Origin: a virus
Lineage: Duplodnaviria > Caudoviricetes
Virus record (IMG/VR): IMGVR_UViG_3300025121_000013
Length of the DNA: 64,000 nucleotides
Direction: 5' to 3' (one strand)
The notes under the pieces were generated by a model. That model saw nothing but the letters and a program-made list of their open reading frames with translations, ran no database searches and was not told the origin of the DNA. Numbering within the stretch: position 1 is the first letter of the stretch; the number at the start of each line of letters is the position of its first letter. Below are positions 14,601 through 48,989 of the stretch, piece after piece. Position numbers and translations under genes: made by a program.

Positions 14601-14683
14601 ATTTTCTCTCCTATGAACATATGGATTTTCATTCTATATAATTCTTTAAGATTCTAAATAAAAAAAATAAAACCTTAACTCAT

Positions 14684-14699
14684 TTATTAATATATATAG
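14684..14699. promoter_or_regulatory. 16-bp AT box TTATTAATATATATAG
   Basis: Identical 16-mer (reverse complement) at 34569-34584; both intergenic. Confidence 0.55.
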
Positions 14700-28033: not shown

Positions 28034-31000
28034 TTAAAGAAGACCTTGAGAAATTAAAGAGGTAAAAGGATCTAACTTTGATAAACTTTGATTATCTCCA
28101 TTTATATTATTGACATTCGTTTTGCTATTTGTATTTATGCTTGTAATTCTTGGGCCTAAAACATTATTAATATTTTCTGAAGATGATTTTATCGTGTCAG
28201 AAACTTTATTAGTTGCCCCTTCTAAAGCGTCGACTGTTTTTTCCCAATCAAGAAATTTTGAAGCGATATCATAATCGTAGCTCATTTCTTTTCCAAATGG
28301 AATTAAAGTATTTTTCTCATAAGCCTTTAATGCGTCCTTAGATTTTGTAGACAGTCTGTCTATAGTTTCTTTCATACCGGGAGGAATCTTGTTCTCCCAA
28401 ATTTGATAATATCTTTGAAAGTCTGCAATCTTTCTACTTTTCTCATCCTTAAATCTTTTTGTAAATGATTTATATGCATTACTTTCAAAGAATTCATTCA
28501 ATCTTGATTCACTTGGAATGCTAAATTGTCCATTATCCATATTTTCCAACTCGTATGGCAAATGGTAATATCTATCACTACCCATAATTAAATGTCCATC
28601 ACGTATTGCTTTACCTATTCTTTCTGAAACATTCGGACCAGAAAAAGCCCATACCCTTGCTCTTTCTGAAAGCATATCTGGAGTTACCAAATTAACAATA
28701 TTTTCTTGATTGTTTCTATTTCTCCATAATTCATTTTTAATATTTTCGATCCAATCAAACATCATTTTTTTATAATCTTCAAAACCTTCTGACGCTCCAG
28801 AAACTGCTTTCTTAAATAGAGTCTCTTCTTTTTTATCTTTTTCTTCTTTTCTTTTTGCCTCTTCTATTGCATATTCGGCTGAGGTTACAAATTTGTTAGC
28901 TTTTGGATCATATACAATAGTTTTATGTTGAACCAATGTACTAAATATTGTATCCGCGACTGAAGGGTCATTCCCAATCATTGCCGCTGCTTCTTGGCTA
29001 CATTTTCTTCTAATATCATTTAAAAATTCTCTAGATCTTTTTTCTGTCAAACCATCAACTTCTTTTTCATATGAAGTTTTATTTTTTTCCCTATTTCTTG
29101 CCCTTTGTATTTCTAAATCTTCATCATAAGAATAAATTGTCTCAGCTATAGTTTTGTATTTTCCACTTTTATCTTTATAGACTAATTCATTATCTAATAA
29201 ATATCTTGACCACTCAGCTATTCCTGAAGGATCATTGCCAAATAATTTCTTAGCTTCTTCTGAAGAATTTTCTAAAAATTTCTCTAAAAGATTTTTTTCT
29301 AATTTATAATCACCGATCTTTATTCCATCATGTATATTTTTACTAAATCTTTCTTTTGATAAATCAATAATATTTTCACGAATCTTTAGAGCTTCTGATA
29401 ATTGTAATTTTATTCTATCATGTCTACTTTGCTTAAATCCAATTTCAGAAGGAAACATATTCTTTCCACCTACGTTAACTATCGTACCGCTATTAAACAA
29501 TTTATTAAATTGGGAGGGTCCATCTTCTCCAAAACTGTTCAATAATTTCTGAACTTTTGAAGAAGAATTTTTACCTATGGTTTCAGAAAATACTTTATTA
29601 GCTTTATCTGTATGTTCTTTATTTTCTTTCATAATTGTATTATATTCTTTTATAATTTTATTTAAGTCAAGAATTCCTCCTGTTAAAGTTTTAATCAATT
29701 CATTTGATCCTGACCACATCTTTTCAAAAGTGGTTAATCTGTCTTTTGCTTTTAGAAAAATATTCGAAGCATTTCCCCATCCTTTAAAGAATTTCCATAT
29801 GCCTTTACCTATAAGATAGATTCCAGCAAAAACTGAAGTTCCTATTAATACATGCCATAGACCACTGAAGAAATCTTTTCCCCCATGTTTTAATTTTTGA
29901 AAAAACTCTCCTGATTTAAATTTATCTAATCTTTTCTCTAATTTATCAATAATACTTGATACTTTCTTTGACGTTTTGGATTTTAAAATCTTTTGAATAA
30001 AAGGAATCTTTACAATCCGTCCTAAAAATAATCCAACCACTGAAGTTCCCATAAACCATAAATCACCAAGAATATTTTTTGCAGTTGATGGTTTGGGAAT
30101 AACCGCCGTCGTTACCCCTGGAGGAATTATGACACCAGAATATCCATTGGATTCTTTATTAATTCTGATGTCCATTGGGCCATTAAATCTTTCATTGATC
30201 CAGCTTAATAAACCCTTTATTCCAGTTCCAATTTCTTCAAATATTTTAAATTGTTTTTCCACTATGAAATCATATAACTTTTTTAACAAAGATACTGGAG
30301 TTTCTTTTTCTACTATTTTCTTTCTTCTAAAATTCCATCCTCTTTCTGCCATAAGAAATTCAGATGTCTTTTTAAAATATTTAGATTTTCCTAAAAGTTT
30401 AAATACATCATTTACAGTGTTTGTTAGATCTCTAAATAAAAATTTTCCTATATTTATTGGAACCCCAATTCTTCTTCCTTCTAAACCAAGTTTTCGTCCA
30501 AAAATTGCATTCCATAAAAATTCACCAAAATCTTTTGGTTTTTTCTTTCCGTTACTATTGCCACCTAATCCAAACCCTTTAATCCAATCTGGCCCAGTTT
30601 GAATTATATCAATTAACTTATCAAATCTAAACATAGCTTCTTCATAAATGGTTCCTAATAAAGCTGGAAGAACTTCAAAAAAGTTTTTCGACTTTGGTAA
30701 ATCTGAAGAATATTTTCCTCTCTTTTTTACCAACCATTTAAATATTGATATTGGAGAAAAAACAAGTTTTGAAGTTAATTTTGTTAAAAGAACCATTTTT
30801 CTATAAAATGGATGTTCATCTAACATTTTTGTTTGAAACTTTTTGAATCCCTCAACCTTAGCTCCAATAGCGTCCCTAACTTCAAGAAGAGCTCTTAATT
30901 GACGAACATTAGCTGGCTCAGTATGTTCATTATATGACTCACTTAAAGCTCTAAAAGTACTTTTGAAAAATCCTTCTTTTTGATCTCTTTTCATATCTTT

Positions 31001-32898: not shown

Positions 32899-34515
32899 TT
32901 ATTCCATATTAAAAAGATCTAAAGTATTGATAAATCCATTTAAATTATCTTGCTTAACCACCTTTGTAATACTTTCATTCATTGTACGCGTTTGATATAA
33001 TCCATCATTTAGATTTATCACATCGCTTAAATTATGAATCTGTTCTGGAGATTGAGTCATATTTATCATAGTCGGTGGATCATATTTTCTCACATAAAAA
33101 CAAAATGATGTTGATAATGCAAGGTCATCATTCATCCCTGTATCCGCTTCAACCCTCCCATTATTTTTTTCAATTAAACCAACTAGTTCTAAAGCTAAAC
33201 GTTTTGACTTAACTATTTCTGGATATTTTACAACATAAGAATATAAAGCATCAATCATCAAAGGTCTTGATTTTCCTGTTGTAGATAAACCCAACTTTAC
33301 ATCTTTCCCTCTATTTTCTCGATATATTTGATTTGCTATTTCATTGTCGGCATTTAATCCACTTAAAACTTCTCCACCATACCCTCCAGTATTTTCAACA
33401 ATTATCAATGAATTTCTATATTGATAAGCTGCTGCCTTAACAACTTTTATAAAATCTGGGATTGGGAGTTTTCCTAAAAATTCCCAGACTTGTTCTAAAG
33501 TTTCATAATCCCAAATGGTTATTGCAGATTTATCACTTGCATATTCTGAAGCCGTATCAACGCCGATAAGATAAAACTTTCCAGATTGAGGGGGACAAAA
33601 TTCATACACAGAACCTGAAAAAAGTCTAAGTTCTTTATAAGGAATTTTTCTATCTTCTTGTAAATATATAACAATATCTTCAGGAAAAAATGTTCCTGAG
33701 GTTGAAACGAATTTTAGTTCAAGTTCCTGATTGATTTTCTTTGGATCATTATCTGCTAATTCACATTGTGTTTTATACCAAAGAGGATCATTGGCTAAAA
33801 CATTTATATCTCTCCAATGAATAACAAATGGCTTAAAAATATAATCTTCAGAAATAGCTTTACTATATTTATCAAAAAACCATTTTCCCACACCTACAGT
33901 TTTATTTGGAGTTGATAAAATAACTGTCCCATATGGAACATCATTTTTTTTCGCTTGCATTTGGTTTGTTGAAAGTGTTGAGATCATTGATGTCCAAGCT
34001 TCATCAATGAATTTGATAAAAGCGGCTTCGTCGATAATTAAAAATGTTACGGCCTTTCCTCTTAAAGTTTTATCTGGAGCGTTTGGGGCGACTGGAGTCG
34101 CATAACATTTTGAGCCATTAGATAATCTAAATGTTCTTTCAGTCTTTTTCGTAAATTTTGGCTTCATCCATATAGGCAGTTCTTCAATAATACCTATGAT
34201 AAATCTAGCAAAGTCTGTAGCTTCAGGGGCGTCTTTTGAAATCAACCCTATAACCACGTTTTTATAAAACACACAAAGCCAAGCAGCATATGCCTGAAGA
34301 ATTGTAGAGATTCCTATTTGTCGACTTTTCAAAACTAATACGAATTTATTATCTTCAACTTTCTCTATCAATTCTAATTGTTTATCATATGGATTCATCA
34401 GAACTTGTTTTCCTGGCAAATTCAATATAACATAATGTTTACAAAAATATTCAAAATCAGTTTTACATTTATGGATTTCTATAATATATTTTTCTATTTG
34501 TTGTTCTTTAGTCAT
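32899..34515 (-). CDS. terL: Terminase large subunit
   Basis: LVLKSRQIGIST (Walker A region), LIIDEAAF (Walker B), STPN, IGVDTA and NDDLAL nuclease motifs; GGAG RBS before ATG 34515. Confidence 0.95.
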   Translation of the reverse strand: MTKEQQIEKYIIEIHKCKTDFEYFCKHYVILNLPGKQVLMNPYDKQLELIEKVEDNKFVLVLKSRQIGISTILQAYAAWLCVFYKNVVIGLISKDAPEATDFARFIIGIIEELPIWMKPKFTKKTERTFRLSNGSKCYATPVAPNAPDKTLRGKAVTFLIIDEAAFIKFIDEAWTSMISTLSTNQMQAKKNDVPYGTVILSTPNKTVGVGKWFFDKYSKAISEDYIFKPFVIHWRDINVLANDPLWYKTQCELADNDPKKINQELELKFVSTSGTFFPEDIVIYLQEDRKIPYKELRLFSGSVYEFCPPQSGKFYLIGVDTASEYASDKSAITIWDYETLEQVWEFLGKLPIPDFIKVVKAAAYQYRNSLIIVENTGGYGGEVLSGLNADNEIANQIYRENRGKDVKLGLSTTGKSRPLMIDALYSYVVKYPEIVKSKRLALELVGLIEKNNGRVEADTGMNDDLALSTSFCFYVRKYDPPTMINMTQSPEQIHNLSDVINLNDGLYQTRTMNESITKVVKQDNLNGFINTLDLFNME

Positions 34516-34530
34516 TTCATAATTCTCCAT

Positions 34531-34544
34531 TTTATATTTGTTCT
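34531..34544 (-). promoter_or_regulatory. Putative late promoter AGAACAAATATAAA
   Basis: Immediately upstream of the terminase RBS. Confidence 0.7.
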
Positions 34545-34568
34545 TTGGTTTTCTTATCTTCCTTTCTT

Positions 34569-34584
34569 CTATATATATTAATAA
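34569..34584. promoter_or_regulatory. 16-bp AT box (second copy)
   Basis: CTATATATATTAATAA is the reverse complement of 14684-14699. Confidence 0.55.
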
Positions 34585-34588
34585 CTGA

Positions 34589-34833
34589 TAGGATTTTATT
34601 GGTTAACTCTTGGCGAGTTATATTAAGTTCCAATATTATCCTACTCACTCAAAAGATCTGGGTGGTCCAGATCGGGTTCCTAGAAAGGGAGAAGATGATC
34701 GAAGAACCTTTTATTTTGAGGCCGATTTTGAATAACCTTCCTACTAATTTTAATTTTTTCCTATTCTAAAAATAGATATGTTTTTCTTTTAAAAATCACA
34801 TAAAGCGGTGGGGGTTTCCCACTGCTTTTTTTT
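34589..34833 (+). ncRNA. Candidate structured non-coding RNA or cis DNA element
   Basis: Nested stems TAGGAT/ATCCTA, ATTGG/CCAAT, TAACTC/GAGTTA; CTCAAAA/TTTTGAG enclosing GATCTGG/CCAGATC and GGTTC/GAACC; ends in a + strand terminator. Confidence 0.4.
34802..34833 (+). terminator. Intrinsic terminator (T8 on +; may also end the hub gene on -)
   Basis: AAAGCGGTGGG-GGTTT-CCCACTGCTTT followed by a T run. Confidence 0.8.
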
Positions 34834-34841
34834 GTACAATT

Positions 34842-36089
34842 TTATATTGAAGTTTGATTGGTTCTTATTAAATTCATTGTTGCCGTTGCTAACCAATCTT
34901 GTTGTCTTCTTAAATTTACCTCGGTCGATTTCAATATATAATTTCCTGACAAGCTTCCAAAGTCTTTTGTTCTTGAAGAAAACTTTACACAAGTTCCAAT
35001 TAATAAAGCTTTAGATAAAATAATATTTCTCTCGACCTGAAGAGTGAGAGGAGATAATTCCGATAAATTTTTTGCTAAAAATGAATTGATAAAGTGATCA
35101 GAATCATCTTGACCAGTATCATTATAAACATTGATTCTTCGATCATTGATTATATATGGGTTTAAATATGTTTCATCATTGCCGCTTATTAAACCTAAAT
35201 TTTTAAAAGAATCTGTTATATTCTTTTCAATTTTTTTGTACAATTTATTTTTTGGTTTAGAAATATTCATAATATTTGGAGCCATATAACTAAACATTGA
35301 ATTTCCATTATACCCAGAAGAAACTGCGGTATAGGTATACATATATTCATATTCTTTTTTACTAGAAAGATTTTCAATAAAGGTGGTATTATCTTCTCCG
35401 ATGCCTAAATGATAAATTATAAAAGATTGTTTTTGTTTTATAATATTTGATAAATTTTTAATTTTGATATTTCCTAAATGATCAGAAAATACAATTGGAC
35501 ACCCATCATAAATTCCAAAATTATCATCTATATATTTTATCGCTTGATAAAAAGACATAGAGGGAATTAATATTTGATCTATCACATCAGAATTGATTTT
35601 CCCATTATCAATTTCAATAGTTCCATATCCAGAATTATATTTTTGATAAAGCCTTGTGATGATATTTAAAACAGATTCATTTCTAAAAATTTCATTTACC
35701 GTTGATGTCATTATATAAAATGAAATGGAAGGGATTGTTACAAATGAAACAGGAATTCTATCAACCATTTCTGAGCCCAATTGTCCAGGTTGCATTGAAA
35801 ACTTTTTATCTATACGTAATAAAAGAAGTTCATAATTAAAAGTATCTAAAATAATATTTGATTCGGTTAATAATTTAATGGATAATTTTAAAGGGTCTTT
35901 TCCATATATTTTATTTAAAATAATATCTCTTGGATCCATTAAAAGATCAATTATTATTGTAGGATAAGGAACAGTGATTCCAGATAAAATTCTTATATTT
36001 GTAATTTCTTGACTATAATCCTGACCCTGAACTCTAAATATAATATCATAACTTTGAGAAGGCTTAAACCTAACTTCATTTGGTTTCAT
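34842..36089 (-). CDS. Baseplate hub / tail protein (gp27/VgrG-hub-like)
   Basis: DQILIPSM.FYQAI.YI..NFG; C-terminal LSGNYIL.S pattern; AAGGAG before ATG 36089. Confidence 0.55.
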   Translation of the reverse strand: MKPNEVRFKPSQSYDIIFRVQGQDYSQEITNIRILSGITVPYPTIIIDLLMDPRDIILNKIYGKDPLKLSIKLLTESNIILDTFNYELLLLRIDKKFSMQPGQLGSEMVDRIPVSFVTIPSISFYIMTSTVNEIFRNESVLNIITRLYQKYNSGYGTIEIDNGKINSDVIDQILIPSMSFYQAIKYIDDNFGIYDGCPIVFSDHLGNIKIKNLSNIIKQKQSFIIYHLGIGEDNTTFIENLSSKKEYEYMYTYTAVSSGYNGNSMFSYMAPNIMNISKPKNKLYKKIEKNITDSFKNLGLISGNDETYLNPYIINDRRINVYNDTGQDDSDHFINSFLAKNLSELSPLTLQVERNIILSKALLIGTCVKFSSRTKDFGSLSGNYILKSTEVNLRRQQDWLATATMNLIRTNQTSI

Positions 36090-36107
36090 AATTTTTAATC
36101 TCCTTAC

Positions 36108-36123
36108 ATTTATATTTTGTTCT
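36108..36123 (-). promoter_or_regulatory. Putative late promoter AGAACAAAATATAAAT
   Basis: Identical to the 14728 motif; directly before the RBS. Confidence 0.75.
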
Positions 36124-36135
36124 AAAAAAATGTAC

Positions 36136-36178
36136 AAAAAAATGAGCCGGGAAAGATACAAACTCCTGGCTCATTTTT
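36136..36178 (-). terminator. Intrinsic terminator ending the accessory block
   Basis: AAAAATGAGCCGGGA / TCCTGGCTCATTTTT; T7 tract on the minus strand. Confidence 0.85.
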
Positions 36179-46981: not shown

Positions 46982-47902
46982 TTATAAAGAAACTATTTCT
47001 GAGGAATCAATTTTGGATACAACAAGATCATTAATTGATTTACGAACAGAAACGGCTGTACTGCCATCCCAACTTGATAAAATTTCATCCTTATCTTTTC
47101 CACTTCTCAATTGAAGGATCGAAACAATGGTTTCAGAAATTTTGGTATGATCAGGAAGAAGGATCGCATTTTGTCCCAAAATATCACGCCATTTTTTTGT
47201 GACTCTATCACCATAACTCCGAAAATGATTTCCTTGTTCAACCATAATATGATAAACATCATATTGACGTCTAACCATAGTTAACAATTCTTCAGAGTTT
47301 AAATCGGTTTGGGGTCCAGTTCCCATAACCTTTTTAATATCATTTGCACGAAGATAAGGAGTGGGTTCTTCATCACCGATGGTGAAAAGAACTCCTTTTT
47401 GTCCTCGTTTTTCAAAACAATCAATGCTTGTTCTTGTCGCGGCAAAATACCACGCCAATGCATAAGATTCATAATGATTTCCGCCGCCACCATGTTCAAG
47501 AAAAATTTTCTGAAGCTGTTCAGCCAATTTAATATCAGCCTCAAATTGAGTGACTTGAAGGGGAACTTCATCTCCCACTTCAACATCATCAATGCCCATC
47601 AACATTACATGAGGATCTTCAACTGGTTTTCTTGCATAAATTTCTGTTAAGAGAATATTGAGGCCTTCTCTGATCATTGCGTCAGCTAAAATTCCCATTG
47701 ATCCAGACACATCCAAAGCGATGATAATTGCATTTGATTTTGGATTTAAATCTGAGTCTCTTGATTCACGAATAGTGATTTTTGATGGATCAAATTCAGG
47801 ATGTAAACGACTTGATGTGAAAATTGCCGAAGTTGATTTTCCTTTGGTTTTTGTCGAACTATATGCCGACCACGATTTATCATCCCACCGGGAATATCCC
47901 AT
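46982..47902 (-). CDS. von Willebrand factor A domain protein
   Basis: ALDVSGSMG (MIDAS), GGGGNHYESY, TIGDE. Confidence 0.8.
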   Translation of the reverse strand: MGYSRWDDKSWSAYSSTKTKGKSTSAIFTSSRLHPEFDPSKITIRESRDSDLNPKSNAIIIALDVSGSMGILADAMIREGLNILLTEIYARKPVEDPHVMLMGIDDVEVGDEVPLQVTQFEADIKLAEQLQKIFLEHGGGGNHYESYALAWYFAATRTSIDCFEKRGQKGVLFTIGDEEPTPYLRANDIKKVMGTGPQTDLNSEELLTMVRRQYDVYHIMVEQGNHFRSYGDRVTKKWRDILGQNAILLPDHTKISETIVSILQLRSGKDKDEILSSWDGSTAVSVRKSINDLVVSKIDSSEIVSL

Positions 47903-47903
47903 T

Positions 47904-48989
47904 CTATTCAACCCTTTCGTACAGATCTTTTTTTTCTATGTCCATTTTGACAAATTTTCTTTTTCCAAAAACCTCTGTTAAAATTTCTCCCCAATTTTTA
48001 TATTCATCGACTGGATTAGATGTCGATGGCATTAATAAATATTCACAAATAGGCAAAGGTATTTTCATGGTTCTTAATTTTATTCCTGTTGGATCTCCTA
48101 ATAATTCTCTACCGATTTGTTTGATCAATTCTAAATCAATAATCGAATCATAAGTTTTTTCTTTGATAATTCTTGTGGGTAAAAGTTCTTTAGTTCTTTT
48201 TGGAATTAATTCTATTTTTGAGCCAATATCAGAAGAAAACCACCATCCTCCCAAAAGTAATCCACTATGATATTTTGGTGATAAAAATATTGAGGTTTGG
48301 GAAAAATCATTATGAACCAATTTTGCATAATTTAAATAACAAGCTATATTGTATAATGAATTTAAAATCCAGGCAACATGCACAGGGTCAATCTTTCCTT
48401 TAAAATAATTTAATATATCCTTTAAAACAAAAACATCTGGAGTTTTCTTTAAAATTAAAACATATTTATTATCATCCGTACTAAAAGATTTTTCAATCTG
48501 AGGTAAATATTTAATCATTTCATTTTTCATATCTTCAGAATAAAATTTAAACTTATTTATATTTTTAAATCCATTCAAATATAAATCTTTTTTATCCTGA
48601 TCAATTACAAACATGACAAGTGAATTACCCACATACATTTTTCCTACGTTGATTTCATGTTGAGTTAAATATTTAAACCTTATAATTTTTCCTTTAATTT
48701 TCAAAATTAAAAGATTTGGATAATCCCAAATATTTTCTTTTACTTTTTCCTTTGCTAATTTTCTTAATTTATTTATATGTTTAAATACTTCACCAGCATT
48801 TTTTTCTTTACATTTATCAGGATGCCATCTATGAGCCAACTTGATAAATATTTGATCTATTTGATCTGGCTCCTTGAATAATATCTCGGGATGCTTGATC
48901 TTAAGTATTTCTTCTCCAGATAAAATGGAGTTTTTATCTCCTACCATGGAAAAAGTATTTTTAATCCTTTCCTGATAAAGTCTTCCCAA
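47904..48989 (-). CDS. J-domain (HPD) plus kinase-like protein
   Basis: LAHRWHPDK J-domain; HVAWILNSLYNIAC..LVHND kinase-like segment. Confidence 0.65.
   Translation of the reverse strand: MGRLYQERIKNTFSMVGDKNSILSGEEILKIKHPEILFKEPDQIDQIFIKLAHRWHPDKCKEKNAGEVFKHINKLRKLAKEKVKENIWDYPNLLILKIKGKIIRFKYLTQHEINVGKMYVGNSLVMFVIDQDKKDLYLNGFKNINKFKFYSEDMKNEMIKYLPQIEKSFSTDDNKYVLILKKTPDVFVLKDILNYFKGKIDPVHVAWILNSLYNIACYLNYAKLVHNDFSQTSIFLSPKYHSGLLLGGWWFSSDIGSKIELIPKRTKELLPTRIIKEKTYDSIIDLELIKQIGRELLGDPTGIKLRTMKIPLPICEYLLMPSTSNPVDEYKNWGEILTEVFGKRKFVKMDIEKKDLYERVE

Follow-up and report, generated by a model that had tools for sequence, protein, structure and literature searches.

What lies upstream of the large terminase gene (terL) of a jumbo phage where both flanking genes read the same way and the DNA between them encodes no long protein? 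The question arises from a stretch of viral DNA of 64,000 nt (hereafter the window), in which positions 34516–34841 form a spacer without a long ORF, bounded at 34842, where a 439-aa gene stops, and at 34515/34530, where terL starts, with both genes on the minus strand. The initial annotation saw at 34589–34833 a candidate structured non-coding RNA divergent from terL or, alternatively, a packaging (pac) or replication (ori) element. We propose instead that the spacer most likely holds an early mini-unit whose product would be a micro-peptide mRNA or a small RNA, a modest and fairly ordinary feature; on the evidence below, it would be a lineage-specific early transcription unit of RNA-polymerase-encoding jumbo phages.

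The phage is a jumbo phage of ~265 kb; the terL product of the window is 100% identical, over 99% of the query, to a 538-aa protein (P0001) from a 265,046-bp ENA contig. For the terL gene (32899–34515/34530, minus strand; PHROG 2, PF03237), the GGAG 9 nt upstream and the matching 538-aa database protein favour ATG 34515 as the start over the first ATG, 34530. On the other side, the 439-aa gene (34842–36161, minus strand) is syntenic upstream of terL in all relatives. Its protein gave no match in Pfam and PHROG searches, and its predicted structure in the ESM Atlas is similar to that of gpD / late control D baseplate-hub proteins (TM 0.63–0.69); from this structural match the gene looks like one for a gpD-type baseplate protein and not for a small terminase. 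It has its own AGAACAAAATATAA motif at 36110–36123. The claim that all neighbouring genes are on the minus strand was borne out: across 26518–63930 every ORF of at least 90 aa is on the minus strand unless nested in a longer minus-strand ORF, and the four plus-strand ORFs of at least 90 aa (30093–30602, 47309–48153) each overlap longer minus-strand ORFs.

The features of the spacer, in window coordinates, are as follows.

34515–34544, minus strand: terL late-type motif AGAACAAATATAAA (34531–34544), SD GGAG (34525–34528) and ATG (34515)
34569–34585, plus strand: early-type promoter box CTATATATATTAATAAC, called from census, orientation and match to the AR9 consensus
34587–34588, plus strand: predicted transcription start, from purine conservation and analogy with the AR9 +1
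34589–34643, plus strand: HP1, nested hairpin (55 nt) right at the start of the predicted RNA, palindromic as DNA
34655–34673, unstranded: HP2, a perfect 7-bp hairpin, followed on the minus strand by TTTT and terminator-like there
34674–34709, plus strand: HP3, a weak stem of 6 bp; its loop of 24 nt contains GGGAG (34687–34691) and ATG 34695; part of the proposed three-way junction
34695–34769, plus strand: 24-codon small ORF (sORF) MIEEPFILRPILNNLPTNFNFFLF plus stop
34721–34797, plus strand: unstructured AT-rich stretch comprising the 3' two-thirds of the sORF and the following spacer (z +0.96)
34802–34833, plus strand: intrinsic terminator, a 12-bp stem and T8

Relatives, spacer lengths and the shared box

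Searches with terL yielded 137 fetched loci (57 from IMG/VR and 80 from metagenomes) with terL identities of 47–60%; no relative above ~60% terL identity was found in IMG/VR, the JGI metagenomes, a 5.8-billion protein set or GTDB genomes. The gene order, gpD-like gene then terL, is kept among these relatives. Counted by unique sequences, their spacers fall into classes of 1–90 nt (n=32), 130–470 nt (n=29) and >1 kb (n=4), and about half of the relatives have no spacer to speak of, with only 1–65 nt at this place. L048, the closest relative by terL, is the sister of the window in the tree of this gene. Presence and absence of the unit are scattered across the tree, a pattern that fits an ancestral slot with repeated loss and turnover of its cargo.

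Homology searches for the element itself recovered the box and nothing else, whether by blastn against INPHARED or by blastn and nhmmer against the 57 and then the 137 terL loci; the sole piece shared with relatives across the 137 loci is this box of 13–18 nt, at window positions 34567–34585. An exact 19-mer search of IMG/VR gave two matches, at chance level and within unrelated genes. The phage, IMG/VR, metagenome and GTDB collections contain no homologue of the element, and self-blast of the window revealed no second copy of the element or its palindrome.

The 16-mer box noted in the initial annotation is indeed present, exact at 34569–34584, with a second copy on the opposite strand at 14684–14699. 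Exact copies of its 13-mer core occur in 41 of the 137 terL loci, nearly always once per locus and upstream of terL. The box occurs in 27 of the 29 relatives with a gap of 130–470 nt versus none of the 32 unique short-gap relatives, and it is 100% conserved while the cargo is unrelated among lineages.

A different motif stands directly before terL. Most of the short-gap relatives listed lack the box and keep AGAACAAA..AAGGAG directly before terL, the arrangement immediately before the gene being TTAGAACAAA..ATAAAGGAG in most of those listed; the short-gap relatives without a directly preceding late motif have gaps of 2–13 nt, which leave no room for it. Long-gap relatives have both the box and the AACA-containing motif. 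From this comparison of loci, the AACA-containing motif, which lies just before the ribosome-binding site of terL, would serve this gene as a late motif of its own, and the box goes with the extra spacer. The codons for the conserved C-terminus ..RTNK of the gpD-like protein read AGAACAAATAAA (L001–L137, e.g. L031 and L036), a sequence similar to the late motif AGAACAAA(A/T)ATAAA. Where the gap is 2–13 nt, the last codons of the upstream gene may contain the late promoter of terL.

The box as a probable early-type promoter

The direction in which the box works can be read from its other copies. In the records of two relatives (143 and 150 kb) an exact 13-mer census found 14 copies versus none for the reversed control, and in all 14 a unit lies downstream of the box on the strand reading CTATATATATTAAT. 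Downstream of the CTATATATATTAA-strand box there are genes with GGAG and an ATG 38–59 nt away (9 of the 14 copies), a gene with a 157-nt leader (one copy), terL-adjacent small ORFs (two) and tRNA clusters (two). On the opposite side, 6 of the 14 copies face only the 3' end of a convergent gene, with nothing encoded that way. The second box copy in the window (14683–14699, opposite strand) faces the first gene of a Cys-array operon. tRNA genes lie ~0.4–1 kb downstream of early-type boxes, on the functional strand, in L149 (986–1059 and 2187–2465) and L140 (2572–2754); this promoter class probably also drives tRNA clusters.

The early promoters mapped in phage AR9 have the consensus AAATATATATTAT-(6N)-G+1, +1 being the 8th nucleotide after ATTA, and the late promoters of AR9 have the consensus AACA-(6N)-TA/G (Lavysh et al. 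2017, PMC5312081); early and late promoters stand back to back between divergent AR9 genes (PMC5312081; see also the review PMC7598289). The sequence CTATATATATTAAT closely resembles the AR9 early consensus AAATATATATTAT-(6N)-G+1 in the same orientation as in our census. From 46 unique sites we derived the consensus cTATATATATTAAT(T)AnT(R)A; at the 7th nucleotide after ATTA purines prevail (G 51%, A 45%), and 83% of the sites have A at the 8th. As in the early promoters of AR9 and phiKZ, the AT-rich motif does not vary over its ~13 nt, TATATATTA(A)T, a conserved purine follows 7–8 nt after ATTA at the position of the AR9 +1, and the early motif is back to back with an AACA-containing late motif between divergent genes. 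The two systems differ in that AR9 has TTAT where we find TTAAT, and late AACA-N6-TA where we find AACA-N4-TA; the AR9 promoters were mapped experimentally whereas those here are known from sequence, the unit here is only ~246 nt, and terL here is of T4 type in phages that, unlike AR9 and phiKZ, are uncultured.

Jumbo phages of the AR9/phiKZ type have two multisubunit RNA polymerases, and here these are seen in two relatives: G001 and G002 each have two RNA polymerase beta-like ORFs (PF00562), and of beta'-like ORFs (PF00623) there are two in G001 and one was found in G002. This 64-kb window contains no RNA polymerase genes. Taken together, the orientation of downstream units in the census, the match to the AR9 early consensus, the separate late motif at terL and the two RNA polymerases of relatives indicate that 34569–34585 is most likely an early promoter firing rightwards on the plus strand. 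It would be of the AR9/phiKZ type and presumably be used by a virion-packaged multisubunit RNA polymerase. The start is predicted at ~G34587 or A34588, at the base of the hairpin. A sigma70-like promoter, TTGGCG-N18-TATTAT (34610–34639, within HP1), was discarded as a candidate; there were 16 such sites versus 16 in shuffles, hence no statistical support.

These comparisons assign a direction and a class (early, AR9-like promoter) to a conserved motif of a large clade of uncultured giant phages. They also suggest that early and late units can be separated by sequence alone, the terminase gene having its own AACA-type late motif.

Hairpins, terminator and small ORF of the window unit

From the predicted start, transcription would proceed rightwards, away from terL, to the T8 terminator (34802–34833), and the resulting RNA of ~246 nt, ending at ~34830–34833, would span nearly the interval of the initial annotation. 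Such a transcription unit would be early and complete in itself, set between two late structural genes of a jumbo phage. That part of the original proposal, a plus-strand unit divergent from terL, is well supported by the promoter orientation, the AR9-like early motif and the plus-strand terminators, and we consider it likely that the unit is transcribed as described. The first 55–60 nt of the RNA would fold into a stable 5' stem-loop, and its body would carry a ribosome-binding site and a 24-codon ORF.

The long nested hairpin reported at 34589–34643 proved to be far more stable than shuffles (−16.0 kcal/mol; z −3.75 on the plus strand and −5.55 on the minus strand). In the full-length fold HP1 extends to 34586–34647, pairing 34586–34594 with 34638–34647. 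It is the most stable 5' structure of the 46 early units (mean z −0.4), and it amounts to 55 nt extra compared with the relatives, the distance from box to ATG being 126 nt here and 39–80 nt in their terL-adjacent sORF units. HP1 probably protects the 5' end of the RNA or acts as an operator; its palindromic DNA, which straddles +1, could allow the latter. Neither HP1 nor HP2 is less significant on the minus strand than on the plus strand.

The three-way junction drawn at 34648–34720 did not survive. It is the minimum free energy fold of the isolated piece only (z −1.0 on the plus strand, with 29 of 200 shuffles folding as well), and it is lost in the fold of the whole 251-nt RNA, the 7-bp hairpin at 34655–34673 alone being robust; on the minus strand the fold of 34648–34720 has z −3.3. 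Read on the minus strand, HP2 is followed by UUUUGAG and is a possible second terminator of the upstream late gene, lying inside the plus-strand unit. Because UUUU directly follows it on that strand, HP2 may help to terminate this gene.

We could confirm the T8 terminator, which has a 12-bp stem at 34802–34828 followed by T8 (z −5.1). By its letters, 34802–34833 is an intrinsic terminator, a GC-rich stem-loop and then a U-run. It has the 12-bp GC-rich stem, the short loop, the U8 and the place at a convergent junction with the upstream gene that are also seen in intrinsic terminators, including bidirectional A-tract/U-tract ones; given the A8 on the other side of the stem, it may be weakly bidirectional. 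An A-tract, hairpin and T-tract with a TTTTTTGTA tail stand at the same position in L048, L018 and L084. By a strict scan, hairpin-plus-U terminators in plus orientation adjoin the stop of the upstream gene in 19 of 31 unique long-gap loci, and by eye they are present in most of the remaining ones too; terL-sense terminators were found in 3 of the 31, all bidirectional. In L018, L033 and L042 the U-tract terminator is exclusively in plus orientation. The U-rich tail of one subfamily of relatives (MKKSG, below) is not independent evidence, because it overlaps the antisense of conserved C-terminal codons.

Known RNA families do not account for the element. In line with the initial annotation, which could match it to neither by eye, there is no tRNA or tmRNA in it (ARAGORN), and the Rfam scan that it proposed gave no match at gathering score, only chance-level matches (E 0.6–9); the gap is not a known structured RNA. 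The broader idea of a structured non-coding RNA found no support: the significant folds are the 5' hairpin and the terminator only, no Rfam family and no homologue was found, and the units of relatives, which are non-homologous, have no conserved fold.

The statement that the interval has no convincing CDS stands in so far as no long ORF lies there, but it passed over a 24-codon ORF from ATG 34695 to TAA 34769, preceded by GGGAG (34687–34691). The spacing from SD to ATG is 3 nt, which is atypical; it is 5–9 nt in the small ORFs of relatives. No homologue of the 24-aa peptide turned up in the window or among the loci, and its composition is that expected by chance for AT-rich DNA. In our estimate, translation of this sORF falls a little short of an even chance.

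Cargo of equivalent units and competing explanations

Relatives with a long spacer have the same promoter, a cargo and a plus-strand terminator. Of 9 long lineages, 8 have SD, ATG and at least 18 codons on the plus strand; the pattern occurs in 2–7% of mononucleotide shuffles and is absent from the reverse strand. Cargo ORFs of other lineages are unrelated to one another, with GGAG at 5–9 nt and a length of 19–51 codons if closed (some run through the terminator). In L048 the box drives two genes, of 365 aa (DUF6745) and 100 aa, which lead into an A8-hairpin-T7 terminator; we considered the window unit as a decayed copy of this cargo and ruled it out for lack of any residual similarity. In L021, L024, L030, L107 and L108 (spacers of 130–139 nt) the box is followed within ~15–35 nt by a small AT-rich hairpin and U6–7, with no ORF, and the spacer looks like a promoter-terminator mini-unit. 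Further on, at the stop of the upstream gene, these five loci have two conserved GC hairpins. The ORF-less units of L021, L024 and L030 indicate that this slot can do without a protein product.

Among the subfamilies the largest is MKKSG..TDVVLIR, in whose 15 unique sequences no RNA fold is conserved apart from the terminator. Its two conserved blocks are in frame in 9 of 13 members and out of frame in 4 of 13, and the block CTTACTGACGTGGTATTAATTAG is conserved at the nucleotide level, in three different frames relative to ATGAAGAAGAGCGG (L003, L007, L009, L010, L045, L082 and others). Coding is therefore likely in this subfamily, though not clean. We also considered that the sORF start might mimic the terL start (inverted repeats I4 and I7), and ruled it out, as relatives have no such mimicry.

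The RNA of the window is most likely a lineage-specific micro-peptide mRNA, since its body has a ribosome-binding site and a 24-codon ORF; to the explanation as a whole (early unit, promoter, 5' hairpin, terminator and micro-peptide mRNA) we give even chances. The same unit could instead yield a non-coding small RNA of ~246 nt that acts in trans on host or phage mRNAs, the ORF being incidental; such an RNA would consist of a 5' stem-loop, a hairpin, a CU-rich middle free of structure and a terminator. The poor SD-to-ATG spacing and the unconserved peptide speak for this, as do CCUUCCU and UUCCU motifs in the single-stranded stretch 34721–34797, which could pair with SD-like sequences, and the occurrence of the same promoter class before tRNA clusters and ORF-less mini-units (L021, L024, L030). 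We nevertheless think it unlikely: beyond the lack of an Rfam match, stability above that of shuffles is limited to the 5' hairpin and the terminator, the rest of the window has no significant complementarity to the RNA, and the units of relatives lack a conserved fold, yet their SD, ATG and ORF are strongly non-random. Somewhat further from our preference is the notion that promoter and terminator are what matters and the content is filler or relic, either a cargo slot for early genes that a deletion has emptied in this lineage or a stretch transcribed for an effect in cis, such as shielding terL from transcription upstream of it or opening the DNA. An invariant box before cargo that ranges from nothing (L021, L024, L030) to two genes (L048), with the unit scattered over the terL tree, speaks for this notion, but SD and ATG are retained in 8 of 9 long lineages, terminators are kept, the window unit has no residual similarity to the L048 cargo, and HP1 is a lineage-specific gain and not decay; we regard this reading as improbable. 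A specific version, to which we assign a still smaller probability, is that the conserved thing is the early promoter and terminator back to back with the terL late promoter, retained across many lineages irrespective of what separates them, RNA and peptide content being secondary. The unit would then act in cis, early transcription by the injected polymerase preparing or gating later events at terL, for example through an R-loop, opening of the DNA or an insulation mark.

Two further explanations concern the minus strand or the DNA itself. The hairpins could be the 3' UTR and terminators of the gpD-like late gene together with upstream regulatory DNA or an operator of terL, with no functional RNA from the plus strand. 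HP1 (z −5.55) and the fold of 34648–34720 (z −3.3) are more significant on the minus strand, which also has two terminator-like sites (34828–34802, and 34673–34655 followed by UUUU), and with its A8 tract the main terminator could work in both directions. The U-tract, however, is perfect on the plus strand only, L018, L033 and L042 have their terminators in plus orientation only, the orientation census of the box favours the plus strand, and the small ORFs with SD and ATG would go unexplained. We find this very unlikely as a replacement for a plus-strand unit, with which it is compatible and not exclusive. The last explanation, a DNA element for packaging or replication beside terL, had been offered in the initial annotation and could appeal to the adjoining terL and to the 55-bp palindrome. 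It has come out as extremely improbable: about half of the relatives have only 1–65 nt here, conservation is limited to promoter motifs, the upstream gene is like that of a baseplate hub and not a small terminase, the palindrome is single-copy in the window, and the GC skew has no inflection.

Replication origins oriF and oriG of phage T4 consist of a promoter and a short non-coding transcript that forms an R-loop. The likeness lies in a phage-specific promoter and a short transcript without obligatory coding, and the ORF-less units of L021, L024 and L030 look alike in this respect; the window element differs in having no skew signal. With phage micro-ORFs and small early host take-over proteins the unit has in common a promoter, SD, short ORF and terminator, and content that is lineage-specific and fast-evolving. 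The window ORF differs from these in its 24 aa, its atypical SD spacing and its lack of a homologue, and its coding is putative.

As a candidate early micro-peptide or small RNA, the unit would be a small, testable addition to a poorly known early programme. The more curious point, though a minor one, is a recurring early-promoter slot beside terL with hypervariable cargo, which could mark a hotspot of gene gain and loss. Two observations on loci of this kind may be added. In L150, on the functional strand, a leader of ~150 nt that GGGTGTGA...TTCACACCC closes separates an early-type box from a 126-aa gene with GGAG; this is a candidate structured 5' leader, with no Rfam match at gathering score. 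In the MKKSG loci a palindrome, GATATATATC, lies between the box and terL, ~5 nt from the former.
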